Below, piece by piece: positions 7,598 through 26,067 of a stretch of 64,000 bases of DNA. The stretch comes from Shigella phage Sf19. Both the position numbers and the translations under genes were made by a program. Location: sequence record MF327005; one strand, 5' to 3'. Under the pieces are notes generated by a model, which saw only the letters and a list, made by a program, of their open reading frames with translations, made no database searches and was not told where the DNA came from. The stretch's first letter is position 1, and each line of letters starts with the position of its first letter.

Positions 7598-8000
7598 AAT
7601 AACCTCTCTCAGCTTTCTCAATTTTATCCAGAAGTTTGATACACTCATTGTTATGGTATGTAGCCTCACTCTGGTGTAACTTCTTCTTCTGCTCAAGTAG
7701 AAATTTATAGTAACCTGATAACTGCTCTCTTGTCAAGGGGTGCTCTGAAATAATATCAAGAGAACTTTCACCTAAAGGTGAGAACATGCCATTGTCATCA
7801 ACGTTGTACAGTTCACCAGCAAAGAAGCCTTTGTTAGCCATTGTGATAGGTGAGCGTTCAATGACCTCAACAACAAACTTTGTGAACACCTTGTCACCCA
7901 TAGTAATCAACTTGGTTCCTGCAATACGAACCTTCATACCACTTCTTGTGTACTTGAAAGTACCATTATCATTCGCCCAAAGCTTCATAGTTTTCTCCAT
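7590..8000 (-). CDS. hypothetical protein
   Basis: 136 aa ORF. Confidence 0.5.
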   Translation of the reverse strand: MEKTMKLWANDNGTFKYTRSGMKVRIAGTKLITMGDKVFTKFVVEVIERSPITMANKGFFAGELYNVDDNGMFSPLGESSLDIISEHPLTREQLSGYYKFLLEQKKKLHQSEATYHNNECIKLLDKIEKAERGYYE

Positions 8001-8005
8001 AGAAA

Positions 8006-8029
8006 TAAAAAAGGCTCCCGAAGGAGCCT
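8006..8029 (-). terminator. intra-operon hairpin terminator (minus strand)
   Basis: aggctcc-cgaa-ggagcct with A-run on plus strand. Confidence 0.5.
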
Positions 8030-8038
8030 CTTAATCTA

Positions 8039-8509
8039 CTATTTTGGATAAACAGCGTCAAGGTAAATCTTGGCTTCCAAACTACGTCTATTTTGTAGAC
8101 CCTTGGAAGTTACTTTTTGACCATTCACTGTAATCTTGTTCCACCACTGCATAGCTTCTGCACAACCAACTTTGTTACCAGCATTGTGACGCTTGATAAA
8201 AGTTGAATCCTGCATAGCACTGATACCAATGTTGTAAGTCTCTACAACAAGTGCATCAAATTCGTTCTGCGTAGTTGGAACCTTGATTGCTTTGTTTACT
8301 GCACCTACATAGTTTTCAACATCTGCAAGGAGATATTGAACAGCTTGTTCAGCAGTAATCTTCATCCCCATCGTAACAGGTCTTCCGTTGATACGGATTG
8401 TTCCATAACCAATTGTAGGGATTCCAGCAGAGTCTTTATAGGCTTCTAAACGAAGCCCTTCAAAGAACTTAATGGCTTCTAAGCCTTTACTTGAGAGTTG
8501 CATTATCAA
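8039..8509 (-). CDS. phage lysozyme (T4-lysozyme-like, glycoside hydrolase family 24)
   Basis: FEGLRLEAYKDSAGIPTIGYGT matches the T4 lysozyme catalytic Glu/Asp/Thr region. Confidence 0.85.
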   Translation of the reverse strand: MIMQLSSKGLEAIKFFEGLRLEAYKDSAGIPTIGYGTIRINGRPVTMGMKITAEQAVQYLLADVENYVGAVNKAIKVPTTQNEFDALVVETYNIGISAMQDSTFIKRHNAGNKVGCAEAMQWWNKITVNGQKVTSKGLQNRRSLEAKIYLDAVYPK

Positions 8510-9390
8510 CCTCCTACTGCGTTAATAACCACCTTGGCAGATTGGGATGTGATTGAGCCACCTACACCAGTTACAACACAAGAGTAAGTACCTTCATCAT
8601 CAGCTTTAGAAGTCGGTGTCTTTTCATATGTTGCAGATGTTGCTGAAGGGATATCTACATCATCTTTCTTCCACTGATAACCAGTTGCACCAGTGGCTAC
8701 GATGCTAAGGGTGAGTGTATCTCCCTCTGTAATCTCTTGGTTAGTAGGTTGCTGTGTAATCACAGGCAGTGCATTCACAGTTACTGTGGCAGCGTTGGAA
8801 TTAACACTTGAGCCACCTTCACCAGAAACTACACAGGTGTATGCGCCAGCATCAGTAGGGACTACGCCATTCTTAGTATATGTTGCAGAGGTTGCTCCAG
8901 AGATGTTTGATGCACCTTTCTTCCACTGATAACCAGTTGCACCAGTAGCAACAACTGAAAGTGTAAGTGTTCCACCCTCGTTAACAGTTTGGTCAGTTGG
9001 CTGCTGTGTAATAACTGGAGGTGTGATTGCATCCTTCAACTTTGCATTAAGCATGGAGAAAGGTTTAACCCTTGCCAACCATTCACAATAAACTGTGTCA
9101 ACATCCTTCCCATTGATGATTGCATACTGCAAGTCCATGAAGAAGTCAGCAGTCCTCATCTGAGCACCAACTGAATATAAAAGTTCTTCACTAAATGGAA
9201 CTGTGTAGTCTGGTGTGTAATTGAAGTCAGTAACTTCTGGAATATCAGACTCAGGCCACGGTGAGCTATATGTCAGAGGCAGAACGGCCTCTTGATACTT
9301 TCTGAAGTCGTATCTTTTGCCAGCTTTAACATTCGCTACAAAGTCTTTAACGAACTCTTTAAAATCTGGATATGTCTTTGCTTTAATCAT
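8506..9390 (-). CDS. protein with conserved N-terminal domain plus two tandem Ig-like domains
   Basis: Two ~80 aa repeats ITQQPT(D/N)Q...TLTLS(V/I)VATGATGYQWKK; N-terminus paralogous to 9387-9755. Confidence 0.6.
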   Translation of the reverse strand: MIKAKTYPDFKEFVKDFVANVKAGKRYDFRKYQEAVLPLTYSSPWPESDIPEVTDFNYTPDYTVPFSEELLYSVGAQMRTADFFMDLQYAIINGKDVDTVYCEWLARVKPFSMLNAKLKDAITPPVITQQPTDQTVNEGGTLTLSVVATGATGYQWKKGASNISGATSATYTKNGVVPTDAGAYTCVVSGEGGSSVNSNAATVTVNALPVITQQPTNQEITEGDTLTLSIVATGATGYQWKKDDVDIPSATSATYEKTPTSKADDEGTYSCVVTGVGGSITSQSAKVVINAVGG

Positions 9391-9755
9391 TTCTTAGCCT
9401 CTAATCTTGCATTTAGTCTAAAATAACCTTTGTGCTGCGGTGAAACATCACCTACAACAACTCCGTCAATCTTATAGCCTTTACCCATCACATATTGAAT
9501 ATCCATCAAAAATGTACCAAGACCAACGATATGAAACATTGGGTAAAGAAGTTCTTCAGTATCTGGTAGAGGAATTTTAGGTGTGTATTCGAAATATGTT
9601 TCGGTAGGGTTGATATCCTTTTCAGGCCATTTGCTATCACGCCATGTTAAGGGTGTCGGAAGTACATCATCAAGATTATACCTGTCACCTTCTTGAACAC
9701 TTTGGACATAAGATTGTAGGAAGCAATAAAAGTCTTTTCCACTCTTTGCCTTCAT
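9387..9755 (-). CDS. hypothetical protein, paralog of N-terminal domain of 8506-9390
   Basis: Shared motifs (KxGKxYxF, EELLY, FxMDxQY) with neighbour. Confidence 0.55.
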   Translation of the reverse strand: MKAKSGKDFYCFLQSYVQSVQEGDRYNLDDVLPTPLTWRDSKWPEKDINPTETYFEYTPKIPLPDTEELLYPMFHIVGLGTFLMDIQYVMGKGYKIDGVVVGDVSPQHKGYFRLNARLEAKK

Positions 9756-9793
9756 TATCTATCCTTAACAAATAAAAGGGGCTTTCGCCCCAT

Positions 9794-9811
9794 AAAACTT
9801 AAGCCATAGTC
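9794..9811 (-). terminator. hairpin terminator (minus strand)
   Basis: ggggc-tttc-gcccc preceded by aaaa on plus strand. Confidence 0.45.
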
Positions 9812-16478: not shown

Positions 16479-16549
16479 CTCGCTTAGTTTATATGGTAAA
16501 GCCCCATCCTTACAAGTTGGTGAAGAAGGTTCAAGTCCTTCAGCGAGTA
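16478..16549 (+). tRNA. tRNA-Val (anticodon TAC)
   Basis: acceptor gctcgct/agcgagt, loop cttacaa, T-arm gaagg-ttcaagt-ccttc, CCA encoded. Confidence 0.7.
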
Positions 16550-16553
16550 CCAA

Positions 16554-16628
16554 GTTCCAGTATCCCAATTGGCAGAGGATGCAAGCTCAAACCTTGTATT
16601 AGTGACGGTTCGAATCCGTCTTGGAACA
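16554..16628 (+). tRNA. short (type-I-like) tRNA with Leu anticodon CAA
   Basis: acceptor gttccag/ttggaac, anticodon arm gcaag-ctcaaac-cttgt, A73, 75 nt. Confidence 0.6.
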
Positions 16629-16647
16629 CCAATTTTAGGAGATTCCT

Positions 16648-16860
16648 ATGAAGCCTTATGGTAGACATGGTAAAGTTGAAATTGCAAGTTGTGGCTGCTG
16701 TGCAGCACATGATGGTGAAGAAGATTATTACAAATGGCGTACAGACCATCGTAAACGCTTTCTCAGAAGAGATAAGAAGAGAGCTAGACAGGAATCTCAA
16801 AAGGATATTGCAGAATTAGTTCAAATGGATAGAGCAGCAACCTACGAAGTTGTTAGTTAG
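16648..16860 (+). CDS. small Cys-rich ORF whose 3' third overlaps tRNA-Arg
   Basis: 70 aa; strong AGGAG RBS 6 nt upstream of ATG; overlap with tRNA makes it doubtful. Confidence 0.25.
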   Translation: MKPYGRHGKVEIASCGCCAAHDGEEDYYKWRTDHRKRFLRRDKKRARQESQKDIAELVQMDRAATYEVVS

Positions 16861-16883
16861 GGGTTCGAATCCTCTATTCTGCA
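16810..16883 (+). tRNA. tRNA-Arg (anticodon ACG)
   Basis: acceptor gcagaat/attctgc, D-stem gttc/gagc, anticodon arm gcaac-ctacgaa-gttgt, CCA encoded. Confidence 0.75.
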
Positions 16884-16904
16884 CCAAATTTAATAGGTAA
16901 CATT

Positions 16905-17132
16905 ATGTATAAACTCATAGTTGAAAAACATAAAGATGACCACAAGATTGAAACAGGTAGATTTGGAGATACTTTCTTTATAGCGGTTGGTTGGCAATGT
17001 GACCCGTTAGAAGTTAGAAAGATTGTTTATAACTTTGCTGGATTAGAACTTAAGCAAGCTATCTTCGAAACATCACTACCTGAAAATAAGGATACTTGCA
17101 ATAACGCATATATTCTTTCAAGAGTTCGTTAG
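16905..17132 (+). CDS. hypothetical small protein between tRNAs
   Basis: 75 aa ORF; stop overlaps first nt of tRNA-Gln. Confidence 0.3.
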   Translation: MYKLIVEKHKDDHKIETGRFGDTFFIAVGWQCDPLEVRKIVYNFAGLELKQAIFETSLPENKDTCNNAYILSRVR

Positions 17133-17203
17133 GGGATTAGTTTACAAGGTTAAAACCTCGGTCTTTGAAATCGAAGAAGATGGTTCAATTCCATCATCCC
17201 CCG
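17131..17203 (+). tRNA. tRNA-Gln (anticodon TTG)
   Basis: loop ctttgaa; unpaired 1:72 (A:C) and G73 as expected for Gln identity; CCA encoded. Confidence 0.7.
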
Positions 17204-17208
17204 CCAAT

Positions 17209-17284
17209 GCTCCATTACTCCAATTGGCAGAGAGGCCAGATTTAAAATCTGTGTTATGTATCGGTTCGAATCCGATATGGAGTA
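17209..17284 (+). tRNA. short (type-I-like) tRNA with Leu anticodon TAA
   Basis: acceptor gctccat/atggagt, loop tttaaaa, T-arm atcgg-ttcgaat-ccgat, A73; D-arm paralogous to 15977 and 16554 tRNAs. Confidence 0.6.
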
Positions 17285-17293
17285 CCAAATATT

Positions 17294-17366
17294 AGCAGTA
17301 TAGCATAACTGGCAATGCTCCAGCCTCTGAAGCTGAAAGATTAAGGTTCAAATCCTTATACTGCTG
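17294..17366 (+). tRNA. tRNA-Gln (anticodon CTG)
   Basis: perfect acceptor agcagta/tactgct, loop ctctgaa, T-arm ttaaggttcaaatcctta, G73, CCA. Confidence 0.7.
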
Positions 17367-17372
17367 CCACTT

Positions 17373-17397
17373 CTAAGGGTTCTTACGAGAGTCCTTA
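17373..17397 (+). ncRNA. conserved hairpin with loop TTCTTACGAG (copy 2)
   Basis: taaggGTTCTTACGAGagtcctta; stem covaries with copy at 13796. Confidence 0.45.
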
Positions 17398-17400
17398 AAT

Positions 17401-17474
17401 GTGGCCTTATCATAAATGGATAATGACCCATGCTGTGAACATGGTCTATACGGGTTCGATTCCCGTAGGTCACC
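17401..17474 (+). tRNA. tRNA-His (anticodon GTG)
   Basis: D-stem tcat/atga, anticodon arm ccatg-ctgtgaa-catgg, C73 discriminator, CCA encoded. Confidence 0.8.
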
Positions 17475-17484
17475 CCAATTTAAT

Positions 17485-17557
17485 AGCTCAATTAGCTTAT
17501 ATGGTTAAAGCGCGTGTCTGAAAAACATGAGAACAGGGTTCAAATCCCGATGGGCTA
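17485..17557 (+). tRNA. tRNA-Phe (anticodon GAA), slightly irregular acceptor/D junction
   Basis: anticodon arm cgtgt-ctgaaaa-acatg, D-stem gctt/aagc, CCA encoded; one extra nt near positions 8-9. Confidence 0.55.
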
Positions 17558-17576
17558 CCAACTTTATAGGTGCATA

Positions 17577-18311
17577 ATGAAAGAGATGACAGAACAAAGT
17601 AAAGAGATTTTTAATCTCCTTAAAACTGGTAATGGTTTCTCAAACCCTCTTATTACTGGTGCAGCAGTTCTTGGTGGTACTATAGCTGCCTCTCAATCAT
17701 TAGTTAACTCAATTAGTTCTGTAACAGACCCAGCTACACAACAGATTTTAGTTGCTGCTGGACTGACAACAGCCTTATTAGGAAGCTTCACAACAAGCCT
17801 TGGAAGTACAACTTCAACGACAAGTACACTTACTGAGTATGGACAAAAGTCTGTAGATGAGTTTTCACAACGTATGCAAGTAGCCAAAGGTTACTCTAAC
17901 GTTATGGGAGCAGCAGGTGAACAGGTTGGATGTACACCATTTAGCGGTATCATGGGCGTAGCTACCGAGTACGGTAATAAAGCGATGGATTTGATTAATA
18001 CCTCCATAGACGCTGTAAATGGCGTTCTAAGCGATTTGCAAGATGCAATCGACCAAGGACTAGATACAATCTCTGAACTCGCTACACAGGCCGTTACAGC
18101 GATTAATGAGGGTATTGCAAAGATTACTGCATATGCTAATGAAGTAACTCAGATGATTGCAGATGAAGCAGCACTGATTGCAGAATACCTGAAAACAAAT
18201 ATTAATGGTTTCCTTGCGAATGTTCTACCAAGCTGGTTTGATGATTCATGTAAAACTGGTGTGATTGATACTATCGCAACTCCAGAGATGAAAGAAGCTC
18301 TGAACAAATAA
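17577..18311 (+). CDS. hypothetical protein (Ser/Thr/Ala-rich; one N-terminal hydrophobic segment)
   Basis: 244 aa from internal ATG with AGGTG RBS; track start 17514 lies inside tRNA-Phe. Confidence 0.5.
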   Translation: MKEMTEQSKEIFNLLKTGNGFSNPLITGAAVLGGTIAASQSLVNSISSVTDPATQQILVAAGLTTALLGSFTTSLGSTTSTTSTLTEYGQKSVDEFSQRMQVAKGYSNVMGAAGEQVGCTPFSGIMGVATEYGNKAMDLINTSIDAVNGVLSDLQDAIDQGLDTISELATQAVTAINEGIAKITAYANEVTQMIADEAALIAEYLKTNINGFLANVLPSWFDDSCKTGVIDTIATPEMKEALNK

Positions 18312-18312
18312 T

Positions 18313-18402
18313 GGAAGATTAACCCTAAAAGGTAAGGGAGCAGTTTGCTAAACTGCCAGTAACCGAGAAATCGGCGTACCAGTTCAAGTCTGGTATCTTC
18401 CT
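18313..18402 (+). tRNA. tRNA-Ser (anticodon GCT), long variable arm
   Basis: perfect acceptor ggaagat/atcttcc, anticodon arm gcagt-ttgctaa-actgc, 90 nt, CCA encoded. Confidence 0.8.
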
Positions 18403-18411
18403 CCAAATTAT

Positions 18412-18484
18412 GTGTCGGTGTCAGAAATGGTTATGTGCCTGTCTGCAAAACAGGTTTATGAGGGTTCGAGTCCCTTCCGATACT
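18412..18484 (+). tRNA. tRNA-Cys (anticodon GCA)
   Basis: anticodon arm cctgt-ctgcaaa-acagg, T-arm gaggg-ttcgagt-ccctt, CCA encoded. Confidence 0.8.
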
Positions 18485-18509
18485 CCAATTTATATTAATA
18501 TCTCTCTCA

Positions 18510-24963: not shown

Positions 24964-26067
24964 ATGTTGACTAATTCTGAAAAAAGCAGATTTTTCCTTG
25001 CTGACTTAACTGGTGAAGTCCAGTCTATTCCAAATACTTACGGATATATCTCTGGTCTGGGACTGTTCCGTTCTGCTCCACAAACACAGACTACTTTCCT
25101 GATGGACTTGACTGATTGGGATATCAGCTTACTGGATGCGGTAGACCGTACCAGCCGTAAAGCTGAGACTAGCGCTCCTGAGCGTGTTCGTCAGATTAGC
25201 TTCCCGATGATGTACTTCAAGGAAGTTGAAAGCATCACTCCTGATGAGATTCAGGGTGTTCGTCAGCCAGGCACTGCAAATGAACTGACTACTGAAGCAG
25301 TTGTACGTGCTAAGAAGCTGATGAAGATTCGTACCAAGTTTGATATTACTCGTGAGTTCTTGTTTATGCAAGCTCTGAAGGGTAAAGTTATCGACGCTAA
25401 CGGTGTTCTGTACGCAGACCTGTACAAGCAGTTCGATGTAACTAAGAAGACTATCTACTTCGACTTGGACAACCCGAACTCTGATATTGATGCGCACATT
25501 GAAGACCTGCGTATGCACATGGAAGATGAAGCTAAGACAGGTACTGTAATTAACGGTGAAGAAATTCACATCGTTGTTGACAGAACTTTCTTCAGCAAGC
25601 TTATCAAGCATCCTAAGATTCGTGACGCATACCTTGCACAGCAGACTCCGCTGGCTTGGCAACAGATTACTGGTTCTCTGAGAACTGGTGGTACTGACGG
25701 TGTTCAGGCTCACATGAACCGTTTCTACTATGGTGGTGTTGTATTCGTACAGTACAACGGTAAGTTCAAAGACAAGCGTGGTAAGACTCATACTCTGGTT
25801 AGCATTGACGGTGTATCTGATACTAATGTTGGTGTAGGTCACGCATTCCCTAACGTAGCAATGTTGGGTGAAGCTAACAACATCTTCGAAGTTGCTTACG
25901 CTCCATGTCCTAAGATGGGTTATGCAAACACTCTGGGTCAGGAACTGTATGTGTTCGAATATGAGAAAGACCGTGACGAAGGTATTGACTTCGAAGCCCA
26001 CTCTTACATGCTGCCATACTGCACACGTCCTCAACTGCTTGTTGACGTTCGTTCAGACGCTGAGTAA
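24964..26067 (+). CDS. major capsid protein
   Basis: 367 aa after protease/scaffold; strongly biased codon usage. Confidence 0.75.
   Translation: MLTNSEKSRFFLADLTGEVQSIPNTYGYISGLGLFRSAPQTQTTFLMDLTDWDISLLDAVDRTSRKAETSAPERVRQISFPMMYFKEVESITPDEIQGVRQPGTANELTTEAVVRAKKLMKIRTKFDITREFLFMQALKGKVIDANGVLYADLYKQFDVTKKTIYFDLDNPNSDIDAHIEDLRMHMEDEAKTGTVINGEEIHIVVDRTFFSKLIKHPKIRDAYLAQQTPLAWQQITGSLRTGGTDGVQAHMNRFYYGGVVFVQYNGKFKDKRGKTHTLVSIDGVSDTNVGVGHAFPNVAMLGEANNIFEVAYAPCPKMGYANTLGQELYVFEYEKDRDEGIDFEAHSYMLPYCTRPQLLVDVRSDAE

Follow-up and report, generated by a model that had tools for sequence, protein, structure and literature searches.

The Shigella phage Sf19 carries, directly upstream of its endolysin gene, two adjacent genes that share a capsid anchor, the domain called CapBD. 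The larger is almost certainly the gene of the Hex-Dec capsid decoration protein and the smaller encodes the anchor only. The overall reading towards which we lean is that of a decoration gene accompanied by a derived, anchor-only copy that may act transiently, away from the mature particle. The stretch analysed, hereafter the window, is 64 kb long and belongs to a Mooglevirus (a Felix O1-like myovirus) with 99.4% identity to the Shigella phages Sf15 and Sf17.

A compact three-gene unit

On the minus strand, the 122-aa paralog is followed by Hex-Dec (294 aa) and then by the endolysin, in a tightly packed unit with a terminator at each end. The first-pass annotation had placed the two ORFs correctly; both are read from the minus strand, at 9755-9387 (122 aa) and 9390-8506 (294 aa), and the lysozyme that it saw beside them (8503-8039) is a GH24 enzyme. 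The features are as follows.

9778..9791, minus strand: intrinsic terminator, GGGGC-GAAA-GCCCC and a T-run; ends the preceding gene and forms the 5' boundary of the unit
9387..9755, minus strand: anchor-only paralog, 122 aa; CapBD fold without display domain
9387..9390, minus strand: ATGA overlap between paralog stop and Hex-Dec start, with a GAGG Shine-Dalgarno (SD) sequence within the paralog 3' end
8506..9390, minus strand: Hex-Dec gene, 294 aa; CapBD and two Ig-like domains, stop TGA at 8506-8508
9025..9390, minus strand: Hex-Dec CapBD, aa 1-122; residues 3-119 identical to 9c2d chain S, R79 and R107 included
8770..9024, minus strand: Hex-Dec Ig-like domain 1, aa 123-207; Pfam, repeat identity, AF2, and fold search
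8509..8769, minus strand: Hex-Dec Ig-like domain 2, aa 208-294; same four lines of evidence
8039..8503, minus strand: GH24 endolysin, 154 aa from the ATG at 8503; phage lysozyme PF00959, 6e-38
8009..8032, minus strand: strong intrinsic terminator, 10-bp stem and T-run, straight after the endolysin; 3' boundary of the unit
24964..26067, plus strand: major capsid protein, the Hex-Dec binding partner; 100% identical to Sf14 gp34 (9c2d_A), Asp221 included

The order paralog/Hex-Dec/endolysin is invariant across the 28 complete loci compared, and the Hex-Dec slot lies directly upstream of a GH24 endolysin in all 28 as well as in every outgroup with flanking sequence. The 4-nt overlap between the first two genes is kept in most of these loci and measures 8 nt in two Suspvirus loci; the 3' end of the paralog is retained even where the paralog itself is a pseudogene. 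The paralog has its own strong SD sequence, and that of the endolysin (GGAGG) lies inside the last Hex-Dec codons. The TTG at 8509 proposed by the ORF lister is probably not the true endolysin start.

Counterparts of both terminators are annotated in the wV8 record, the upstream one being kept in wV8, fBSPA4, and Z31. This upstream terminator stands 22 nt ahead of the paralog ATG, and there is no space for a promoter between the two. No sigma-70-like promoter was identified for the three-gene unit, promoter-like matches being fewer than expected from shuffled sequence.

About 15.6 kb separate the unit from the capsid gene, which is encoded on the other strand. A position among early genes had been pointed out as unusual for a virion decoration. 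Its remoteness from the morphogenesis module stands, and that Hex-Dec lies outside the structural/morphogenesis module had already been published for Felix O1 and Bas63 (for Bas63, PMC12609058). The word "early" finds no support, the Felix O1 orthologs falling in the latest class of an RT-PCR table that is itself crude (see below).

The large gene encodes a Hex-Dec ortholog

When compared with the PDB, the 294-aa protein matches 9ncf_S (phmmer E=1e-257) and 9c2d_S (5e-185). Orthologs of this protein were solved by cryo-EM on the capsids of Sf14 and Bas63 (PDB 9c2d, 9c3a, 9ncf) and detected by mass spectrometry (MS) (PMC11821841, PMC12609058), and the Felix O1 ortholog, gp36, was found in virions by MS. 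The view of the large protein as a virion decoration is thus borne out by its orthologs. In the Sf14 structure, R79 and R107 form salt bridges with capsid Asp221 (PMC11821841); both arginines are invariant in 24 distinct Hex-Dec CapBDs. The gene is therefore, almost certainly, the ortholog of Sf14 gp20 and shares the identity and mechanism of its orthologs, from which its placement on the virion is predicted.

Because the orthologs are solved and both the CapBD and the capsid protein are identical, the docking mode can be transferred to Sf19. By orthology, a Hex-Dec monomer would dock via its N-terminal CapBD of about 120 aa in the center of those 60 hexamers of the T=9 head that lie at facet edges (pentamer-proximal), with its two flexible Ig-like domains pointing outward. 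By analogy with T4 Hoc, these outward domains presumably serve adhesion.

The two tandem repeats reported at first reading, with about 75% DNA identity, were recovered: positions 8619-8771 and 8871-9023 are 75% identical over 153 nt, with a spacing of 252 nt, and a further pair of stretches, 8553-8599 and 8808-8854, shows 77% identity. As proteins, Ig1 and Ig2 share 61% identity (E=9e-32). Whether the repeats might not match Ig-like folds on prediction was tested, and Pfam, AF2, and Foldseek agree on an Ig-like fold. Pfam retrieves Ig_3 (1.5e-19), Ig_2 (9e-15), and I-set (9e-14), all above curated cutoffs; the AF2 model of residues 123-294 consists of two beta-sandwiches with a pLDDT of about 95; and Foldseek places tandem Ig domains at the top of its PDB fold matches (MALT1, Robo2, titin, MuSK; E 1e-11 to 1e-15, prob 1.00). 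In the homolog search, the second match place per record corresponds to the internal Ig repeat. No further CapBD or Ig copy occurs within the 64-kb window, tblastn with the CapBD returning the two known copies only.

Hex-Dec carries 1 to 4 Ig domains among the loci compared, a variability that has already been published. The database annotation of the 294-aa gene as "tail protein" (PHROG 3995) is ruled out by 9c2d and 9ncf, whose models place the orthologous chain on the capsid, and the Bas63 paper also calls this annotation wrong (PMC12609058).

The anchor-only paralog

The N-terminal domain of about 120 aa of the large gene had been described as paralogous to the small gene. BLASTP supports this, with 47/123 identities (38%, E=4e-18) between residues 1-119 of the small and 2-119 of the large protein; the small protein also matches residues 3-119 of 9c2d_S (E=1.5e-13). 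Its counterparts are Sf17 gp019, Sf14 gp21, Felix O1 ORF37, and VpaE1 ORF40c, grouped in PHROG 4463 (function unknown). The AF2 model of the paralog has moderate confidence (pLDDT 63), and its only significant PDB fold matches are 9c2d_S (TM 0.62) and 9ncf_S (TM 0.60).

Both anchoring arginines are absent from the Sf19 paralog, which has Gly at the R79 position and Gln at the R107 position. In 24/24 distinct paralogs the R79 position is Gly, and the R107 position varies among Q, H, N, K, and R. Likewise, the KPF motif conserved in the Hex-Dec CapBD becomes KGY in the paralogs. Between the two families 41 type-II sites are found, 27 of them within residues 61-122, and the C-terminal lobe of the paralog is remodelled yet itself strongly conserved, while the core of the fold is kept. 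All 24 distinct sequences stop 3-5 residues past the CapBD, with no display domain or tail. A difference in charge between the paralog and Hex-Dec was also considered as a functional clue and dropped, because the pI ranges from 5 to 9 in both families among relatives.

Selection was analysed over the 28 loci (dS about 0.85). The paralog has a median dN/dS of 0.124, compared with 0.043 in the Hex-Dec CapBD, 0.115 in Ig1, and 0.079 in the lysin; its evolution is thus about three times as fast as that of the Hex-Dec CapBD. Of 252 genomes, about 232 have an intact paralog.

Origin of the gene pair

The outgroups were reached by exhaustive profile search, word-index homolog searches giving close relatives only. 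Kolesnikvirus (Erwinia phage phiEa104/Fifi318) and the metagenomic proteins P0099-P0104 have a CapBD of the same family (profile E 1e-10 to 4e-4, BFVD TM 0.53), in the same slot, between a PHROG-4034-like gene of about 200 aa and the lysin. Unlike in Sf19, the display part is not I-set Ig but Big_2, a different Big-like domain, or a disordered tail rich in K, S, and E; the gene is present once, and an anchor-only paralog is missing. A single gene made up of a CapBD and a display part occupies this slot in the metagenomic loci L038-L043 and in the cultured Erwinia Kolesnikvirus Fifi318. More generally, every more distant relative has one CapBD gene in the slot, to which a display domain (Big_2 or I-set) or a tail is already attached. 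A scan with a CapBD HMM found one CapBD ORF per outgroup locus and no tandem paralogs. Display domains are therefore swappable on the CapBD anchor, I-set, Big_2, and disordered tails all being found on it.

For each of the six outgroup CapBDs, the closer match is the Hex-Dec copy, not the small paralog. Because the outgroups are single-copy, possess a display domain, and are closer to Hex-Dec, the anchor-only gene appears to be the derived copy; together with the purifying selection on it, this makes it very probable that the paralog is both functional and derived. The duplication is old, since a divergent pair (P0097/P0098) is found side by side in locus L035.

Three upstream genes were considered in this context. 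The gene upstream of P0099 (L037) is unrelated to CapBD. The 141-aa ORF upstream of P0101 (L047) resembles the CapBD N-terminal helix only (hhalign probability 17%). Finally, a pairing of the T4 inh-hoc type was suggested by a faint precomputed match to PF26097 (Phage_Inh_N) in a conserved gene of about 185 aa upstream in L040-L042; this lead was rejected, and a direct Pfam scan of the protein, of its L043 homolog, and of the 196-aa protein of the window gave no family at E<=1.

Expression, virion content, and natural loss of the paralog

In Felix O1, RT-PCR assigned both ORF36 and ORF37 to the latest class of expression (60 min). The late assignment is a tentative one, because the same crude table lists gene 58, the major capsid gene, among those of the 5-min class; the orthologs hint that the paralog may be co-expressed late with Hex-Dec.

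MS of Felix O1 virions gave a list of 17 proteins, filtered at >=25% coverage, in which gp36 is present and gp37 absent, proteins of 9.7-13 kDa being detected. In VpaE1, gp40 is not among the virion proteins, 22 in number, as far as the main text of that study presents them. The capsid maps of Sf14 and Bas63 contain no extra hexamer density, and Table 1 of the Sf14 paper reports structural proteins rather than everything detected by MS (PMC11821841, PMC12609058). Symmetry averaging would blur the signal of a monomer bound to an icosahedral 3-fold hexamer. No chain corresponding to the paralog was found in the PDB sequence search. The main texts of the Sf14 and Bas63 papers contain no occurrence of "gp21" or "paralog" (PMC11821841, PMC12609058), and no description of a role for the paralog was found in the searchable literature. 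Judging from its orthologs, the paralog does not seem to be present in stoichiometric amounts in the mature virion, and is quite likely not a stable virion protein.

In one lineage, comprising fBSPA4, Z31, and REP7, the paralog is reduced to a pseudogene remnant, and Hex-Dec is intact in fBSPA4 and REP7. The paralog thus seems dispensable. This natural loss means that Hex-Dec can exist without the paralog, which weakens the idea of an obligatory chaperone.

Possible roles of the paralog

Our best guess, a tentative one, is that the paralog has a transient role directed at the capsid or at Hex-Dec. It would be a transient accessory of head morphogenesis that acts away from the mature particle, contacting either capsid hexamers in a state or at a site without Hex-Dec, for instance in the unexpanded procapsid, or Hex-Dec itself; this contact would tune when or where Hex-Dec docks. 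A more specific and rather unlikely version would make the paralog a head-assembly factor of a new kind, external and transient, descended from a decoration protein: a CapBD "plug" sitting on procapsid or facet-centre hexamers, helping to set the 60-of-80 occupancy, and leaving before or at maturation.

Two other roles have to be weighed against this one. The paralog could be a minor virion decoration on sites free of Hex-Dec, for example the 20 true 3-fold hexamers at facet centres or those near the portal, so that two anchors would divide the labor. It keeps the CapBD fold, its gene overlaps that of Hex-Dec and is co-expressed with it, and its remodelled, strongly conserved C-terminal lobe is what one would expect for a slightly different hexamer geometry; moreover, the Sf14 paper ascribes the site selectivity of Hex-Dec to a shifted Asp221 in the true 3-fold hexamer (PMC11821841). 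Icosahedral averaging and MS thresholds, such as the coverage filter of the Felix O1 list, could have hidden it so far. However, both anchoring arginines are gone, and the protein is missing from the 17 Felix O1 virion proteins and from the 22 of the VpaE1 main text, even though low-copy and 10-13 kDa proteins were detected; we regard a minor decoration as improbable. Recruitment outside head assembly, as a decoy or inhibitor of a host system sensing the anchor or the capsid, or as another host-directed accessory, is a little less improbable, though still unlikely. The paralog lies among small accessory genes in a leftward block, which in L035 also has a Gad1-type anti-defence gene, and its dispensability in one lineage, its faster evolution, and its absence from virions would suit such a role. 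PADLOC, the library of which covers defence but not anti-defence, gave 0 hits; the physical coupling to Hex-Dec is invariant over the 28 loci, and the paralog falls, like Hex-Dec, in the latest expression class, whereas anti-defence genes are as a rule expressed early.

The remaining alternatives bear on the origin and the very functionality of the small gene. The first-pass annotation had proposed a duplication followed by the acquisition of Ig domains, that is, an ancestral domain-only gene with a duplicate that later gained them, in an odd early-gene setting. Gain of domains on this anchor does happen, display domains being swappable and Ig domains numbering 1 to 4, but the outgroups reverse the proposed order, since their single gene in the same slot already has a display domain and is closer to the Hex-Dec CapBD; with orthologs in the latest expression class as well, we consider this scenario very unlikely. 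Still less credible is a decaying, functionless duplicate, which the pseudogene of one lineage might evoke: it is contradicted by the dN/dS of 0.12 at a dS of about 0.85, by intact copies in about 232 of 252 genomes, by retention in the deeply divergent L035, and by the strong SD sequence of the gene.

Comparison with other decoration proteins

The Sf19 protein shares with Sf14 gp20 and Bas63 Hex-Dec the same CapBD (residues 3-119 identical to Sf14), the capsid partner, and the slot before the endolysin. It differs from them by its number of Ig domains, 2 vs. 3 in Sf14 and 4 in Bas63; versions with two Ig domains were explicitly noted in Sf13 and Sf17 (PMC11821841).

Like T4 Hoc, the protein is a non-essential monomer at hexamer centers with an outward string of Ig-like domains, and its matches to the PHROG "Hoc-like head decoration" families are confined to the Ig region (residues 119-288). 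However, the capsid-binding domain is C-terminal in Hoc and N-terminal in the Sf19 protein, and the two domains are topologically distinct according to the Bas63 paper (PMC12609058). No Hoc chain was found among the PDB sequence or fold matches of the CapBD and of the paralog. Hoc occupies all hexamers, Hex-Dec 60 of 80. We know of no anchor-only paralog of Hoc.

The Ig region also matches chains named "Decoration protein" (5lxk_A, 8zvi_a; E about 1e-9), which we take to be T5 pb10. Unlike the Sf19 protein, pb10 has one Ig domain, and its anchor was not retrieved by CapBD sequence or fold searches.

Significance

The Ig-bearing gene brings nothing new in itself, being already solved and published; its value here is to correct the widespread "tail protein" and "tail fiber" annotations. 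The new point is the anchor-only paralog, which is present in about 230 genomes, is under selection, adjoins the decoration gene, and is absent from the available virion datasets. It makes approachable a question left open by both cryo-EM papers, namely why Hex-Dec is found on only 60 of 80 hexamers, and the natural paralog-minus phages fBSPA4 and REP7 are ready controls. If the weak lead in L047 is real, pairs of an anchor-only and an anchor-display gene would recur in unrelated phages. In this family, the capsid anchor evolves as a module, on which display domains are swapped and from which a stripped-down copy arises, and this is relevant to the use of CapBD as a phage-display anchor.

Genomic Setting and Organization of the Locus

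By sequence, the window is assigned to Mooglevirus (Ounavirinae, Felix O1-like myoviruses): region 8000-10400 shares 99.4% identity with Shigella phages Sf15 and Sf17 and 98-99% with other Moogleviruses. Consistent with this identification, 25 tRNA genes are found at 13.0-18.5 kb (13036-18487) and a plus-strand morphogenesis module extends from ~18.9 to 42.2 kb. Both genes reported by the first-pass annotation are present on the minus strand, and the adjoining gene is indeed a lysozyme, of the GH24 family. The features discussed here are the following:

9791-9778, minus strand, strong intrinsic terminator, 22 nt ahead of the paralog ATG
9755-9387, minus strand, anchor-only paralog, 122 aa
9390-8506, minus strand, Hex-Dec, the hexamer decoration protein, 294 aa
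8503-8039, minus strand, GH24 lysin
8032-8009, minus strand, strong intrinsic terminator, directly after the lysin
24964-26067, plus strand, capsid protein, 367 aa, 100% identical to Sf14 gp34 (PDB 9c2d_A)

The three genes are tightly packed. The paralog stop and the Hex-Dec start overlap in ATGA, and the lysin ATG at 8503 lies 2 nt past the Hex-Dec stop, with its GGAGG within Hex-Dec. The order paralog, Hex-Dec, lysin is unchanged in 28 of 28 complete loci, and the terminator pair bracketing the unit is also annotated in wV8. No promoter could be assigned to the unit. In Felix O1, the equivalents are ORF37 (paralog), ORF36 (Hex-Dec), and ORF35 (lysin). RT-PCR places ORFs 36 and 37 in a 60-min class with portal and fibre genes, and ORF35 and ORF38 in a 25-min class, in a table that is crude since it puts the capsid gene at 5 min. 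Because of the 60-min class, the earlier description of the pair as lying among "early genes" is unsupported.

Upstream of the paralog, and across a terminator from it, lies the gene of a 196-aa protein (9799-10389, minus strand; PHROG 4034, without a Pfam family). This gene invariably adjoins the CapBD gene, named for its capsid-binding domain, on the upstream side in all lineages examined with upstream flank, including Kolesnikvirus, with the exception of contigs L047 and L048. The block is flanked by a divergently transcribed pair, DUF5681 and DUF2828/DUF7788 ("RNA-binding protein"), at 11007-11378 and 11455-12870 (plus strand), followed by the tRNA cluster. Most relatives with sufficient flank, the distant outgroups L038-L042 among them, keep this pair beside the CapBD-lysin slot; outgroup L043 and the Kolesnikvirus Fifi318 locus have only its small gene.

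Hex-Dec Is a Known Decoration Protein

The 294-aa gene is already known and its product solved. It matches capsid chain S of Sf14 (9c2d/9c3a, E = 5e-185) and of Bas63 (9ncf, E = 1e-257), with no difference from the Sf14 chain over residues 3-119. These orthologs, solved on the Sf14 and Bas63 capsids, support the virion decoration considered at first pass. Sf14 gp20 was detected by mass spectrometry (MS) and shown to be a Hoc-like decoration protein (Subramanian et al., 2025, PMC11821841). It attaches as a monomer, through its N-terminal 118 residues, at the hexamer centre of the T=9 capsid, only on pentamer-proximal (quasi-3-fold) hexamers, and its R79 and R107 form salt bridges with capsid Asp221 (PMC11821841). 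As R79, R107, and capsid D221 are all present in the window, the published mechanism transfers directly and, at the level of sequence orthology, can be regarded as established for Hex-Dec. The names Hex-Dec and CapBD (its anchor) come from the Bas63 study, which also places the gene >10 kb outside the structural module, gives an Ig number of 1 to 4, and considers "tail protein" annotations wrong (PMC12609058). Public labels are inconsistent: tail protein, tail fiber protein, structural protein, and "kappa-carrageenase" (phi63_307).

The display region carries two direct tandem repeats (8619-8771 and 8871-9023; spacing 252 nt) with 75% DNA identity, as first noticed, and 61% protein identity (E = 9e-32). 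A domain search identifies Pfam Ig_3 (1.5e-19), Ig_2, and I-set, all over their own cutoffs. AlphaFold2 and Foldseek predictions also give Ig folds: residues 123-294 are modeled as two beta-sandwiches (pLDDT ~95) matching tandem Ig domains of MALT1, Robo2, titin, and MuSK (E 1e-11 to 1e-15).

Hex-Dec has 210, 294, 372-377, or 461 aa across the 28-locus survey. Two Ig domains are stated explicitly for Sf13 and Sf17, and three for Sf14 (PMC11821841). Capsid protein, CapBD (residues 3-119), and paralog are all 100% identical between the window and Sf14, but the Ig count differs (two vs. three); therefore, Ig gain or loss is very recent among near-identical phages.

Origin of the Gene Pair

Alignment verified the paralogy of the 122-aa protein and the N-terminal domain of Hex-Dec (38% identity over ~120 residues, E = 4e-18). 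Only 13 clusters came out of an exhaustive profile search against 1.84 billion representative proteins, so the CapBD family is very small. The duplication is old, because the divergent 87-kb phage contig L035 already has both genes adjacent, upstream of the lysin. In more remote members there is a single CapBD gene, whose fusion partner is Big_2 (8.5e-21), I-set, a weak Big-like domain, or a K/S/E-rich tail. Where flanks exist, this gene occupies the same slot between a ~200-aa gene and the lysin, as in the cultured Erwinia Kolesnikvirus Fifi318; phiEa104 is also linked by BFVD. An HMM scan found no second CapBD copy in the single-gene outgroup loci.

Paralogs and Hex-Dec proteins form separate monophyletic clades in 200/200 bootstraps, and 6/6 outgroups score better against Hex-Dec than against the paralog (e.g., 154 vs. 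87). Single-copy outgroups nearer Hex-Dec indicate that the ancestral state was one anchor-plus-display gene and that the anchor-only gene is a derived copy. This direction is opposite to the "duplication followed by Ig acquisition" previously proposed. The first-pass annotation observed correctly and was partly right in interpretation, for the Ig decoration and the paralogy, while evolutionary direction and "early" timing did not hold.

Two further observations concern distant loci. Directly upstream of the distant CapBD and I-set protein P0101, a 141-aa ORF (L047:1739-2164, also in L048) starts MLKAKQYDSFEEL. Over ~30 residues it weakly resembles the CapBD N-terminus (BLASTP E 0.007; hhalign probability 17%), which could reflect chance or a second tandem case of an anchor-only paralog, highly divergent and in an unrelated phage. 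In L035, an Ounavirinae-like metagenomic phage, a Gad1-family gene (PF25705, anti-Gabija; 11510-12369) lies in the same leftward block, ~3.8 kb downstream of the lysin; the window has no ORF of comparable size at the equivalent position.

A Conserved Anchor-Only Paralog

The paralog (PHROG 4463, "unknown function") has no mention in searchable structural or genomic papers. It is found in ~232 of 252 Ounavirinae records (73-100% identity). Its UniRef label is "Tail protein," and a "Staphylococcus phage SA1" record has a Felix O1-type copy (99% identity), suggesting that the record is misattributed or contaminated. The paralog has a median pairwise dN/dS of 0.124 (dS ~0.85); the Hex-Dec CapBD, Ig1, and the lysin give 0.043, 0.115, and 0.079, respectively. 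By these ratios, the paralog is a functional gene evolving ~3 times faster than its sister domain.

Just two PDB chains match its AlphaFold2 model (pLDDT 63, pTM 0.65) significantly, and both are capsid-bound CapBDs: 9c2d_S (TM 0.62) and 9ncf_S (TM 0.60). Across the two families, 35 positions are conserved and identical; another 41 are conserved within each family and differ between them, 27 of these in residues 61-122, which hold both published contact residues. Position 79 is Gly in every paralog, position 107 is Q/H/N/K/R, and the KPF motif common to Hex-Dec and outgroups is KGY. The fold is kept, and the region holding the two anchoring arginines differs and is itself conserved.

Possible Roles of the Paralog

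Virion evidence on the paralog, from orthologs, is negative. Whole-particle and gel MS of Felix O1 lists gp36 and not gp37, though proteins of 9.7-13 kDa were detected, in a coverage-filtered list. In VpaE1, FASP LC-MS/MS gives 22 proteins, described as the Felix O1 set with gp54, gp58, and gp68 added and gp23 missing; the paralog gp40 is outside this described set. Neither cryo-EM study (Sf14, Bas63) has unassigned hexamer density, although a monomer on a 3-fold axis would blur under icosahedral averaging, and no corresponding PDB chain was found. The paralog is thus probably not a stable virion protein. It also seems to be dispensable: in three phages from India, China, and the USA (fBSPA4, Z31, and REP7), it is reduced to a remnant with a destroyed ATG and a ~220-nt internal deletion, which keeps the 3′ end carrying Hex-Dec translation signals. 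Of these phages, fBSPA4 and REP7 have an intact Hex-Dec. Conversely, Salmonella phage ST11 has an intact paralog and Hex-Dec fragmented into three or four short ORFs (L046). Hex-Dec is also split in Shigella phage Z31 (134- and 55-aa ORFs; L003). Either the decoration gene, which is non-essential, is truly decaying in these phages, or the splits are frameshift sequencing errors.

We tentatively propose that the paralog could be a late, non-essential accessory of head morphogenesis, non-virion or transient, whose CapBD scaffold would contact either Hex-Dec itself or capsid hexamers, the latter at a site, or in a state, that Hex-Dec leaves unused. A non-capsid role, for example as a decoy, would fit the accessory gene block (shared with Gad1 in L035), the dispensability, and the faster evolution of the paralog, but is doubtful, PADLOC giving zero matches. 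That it is a minor structural decoration of the 20 facet-centre hexamers is improbable in view of two cryo-EM maps and two proteomes, and a dead duplicate is scarcely credible, being excluded by the dN/dS analysis.

The new element is a conserved, previously undescribed anchor-only paralog, a modest new variant. It gives a testable link to the unexplained selectivity of Hex-Dec for 60 of 80 hexamers.
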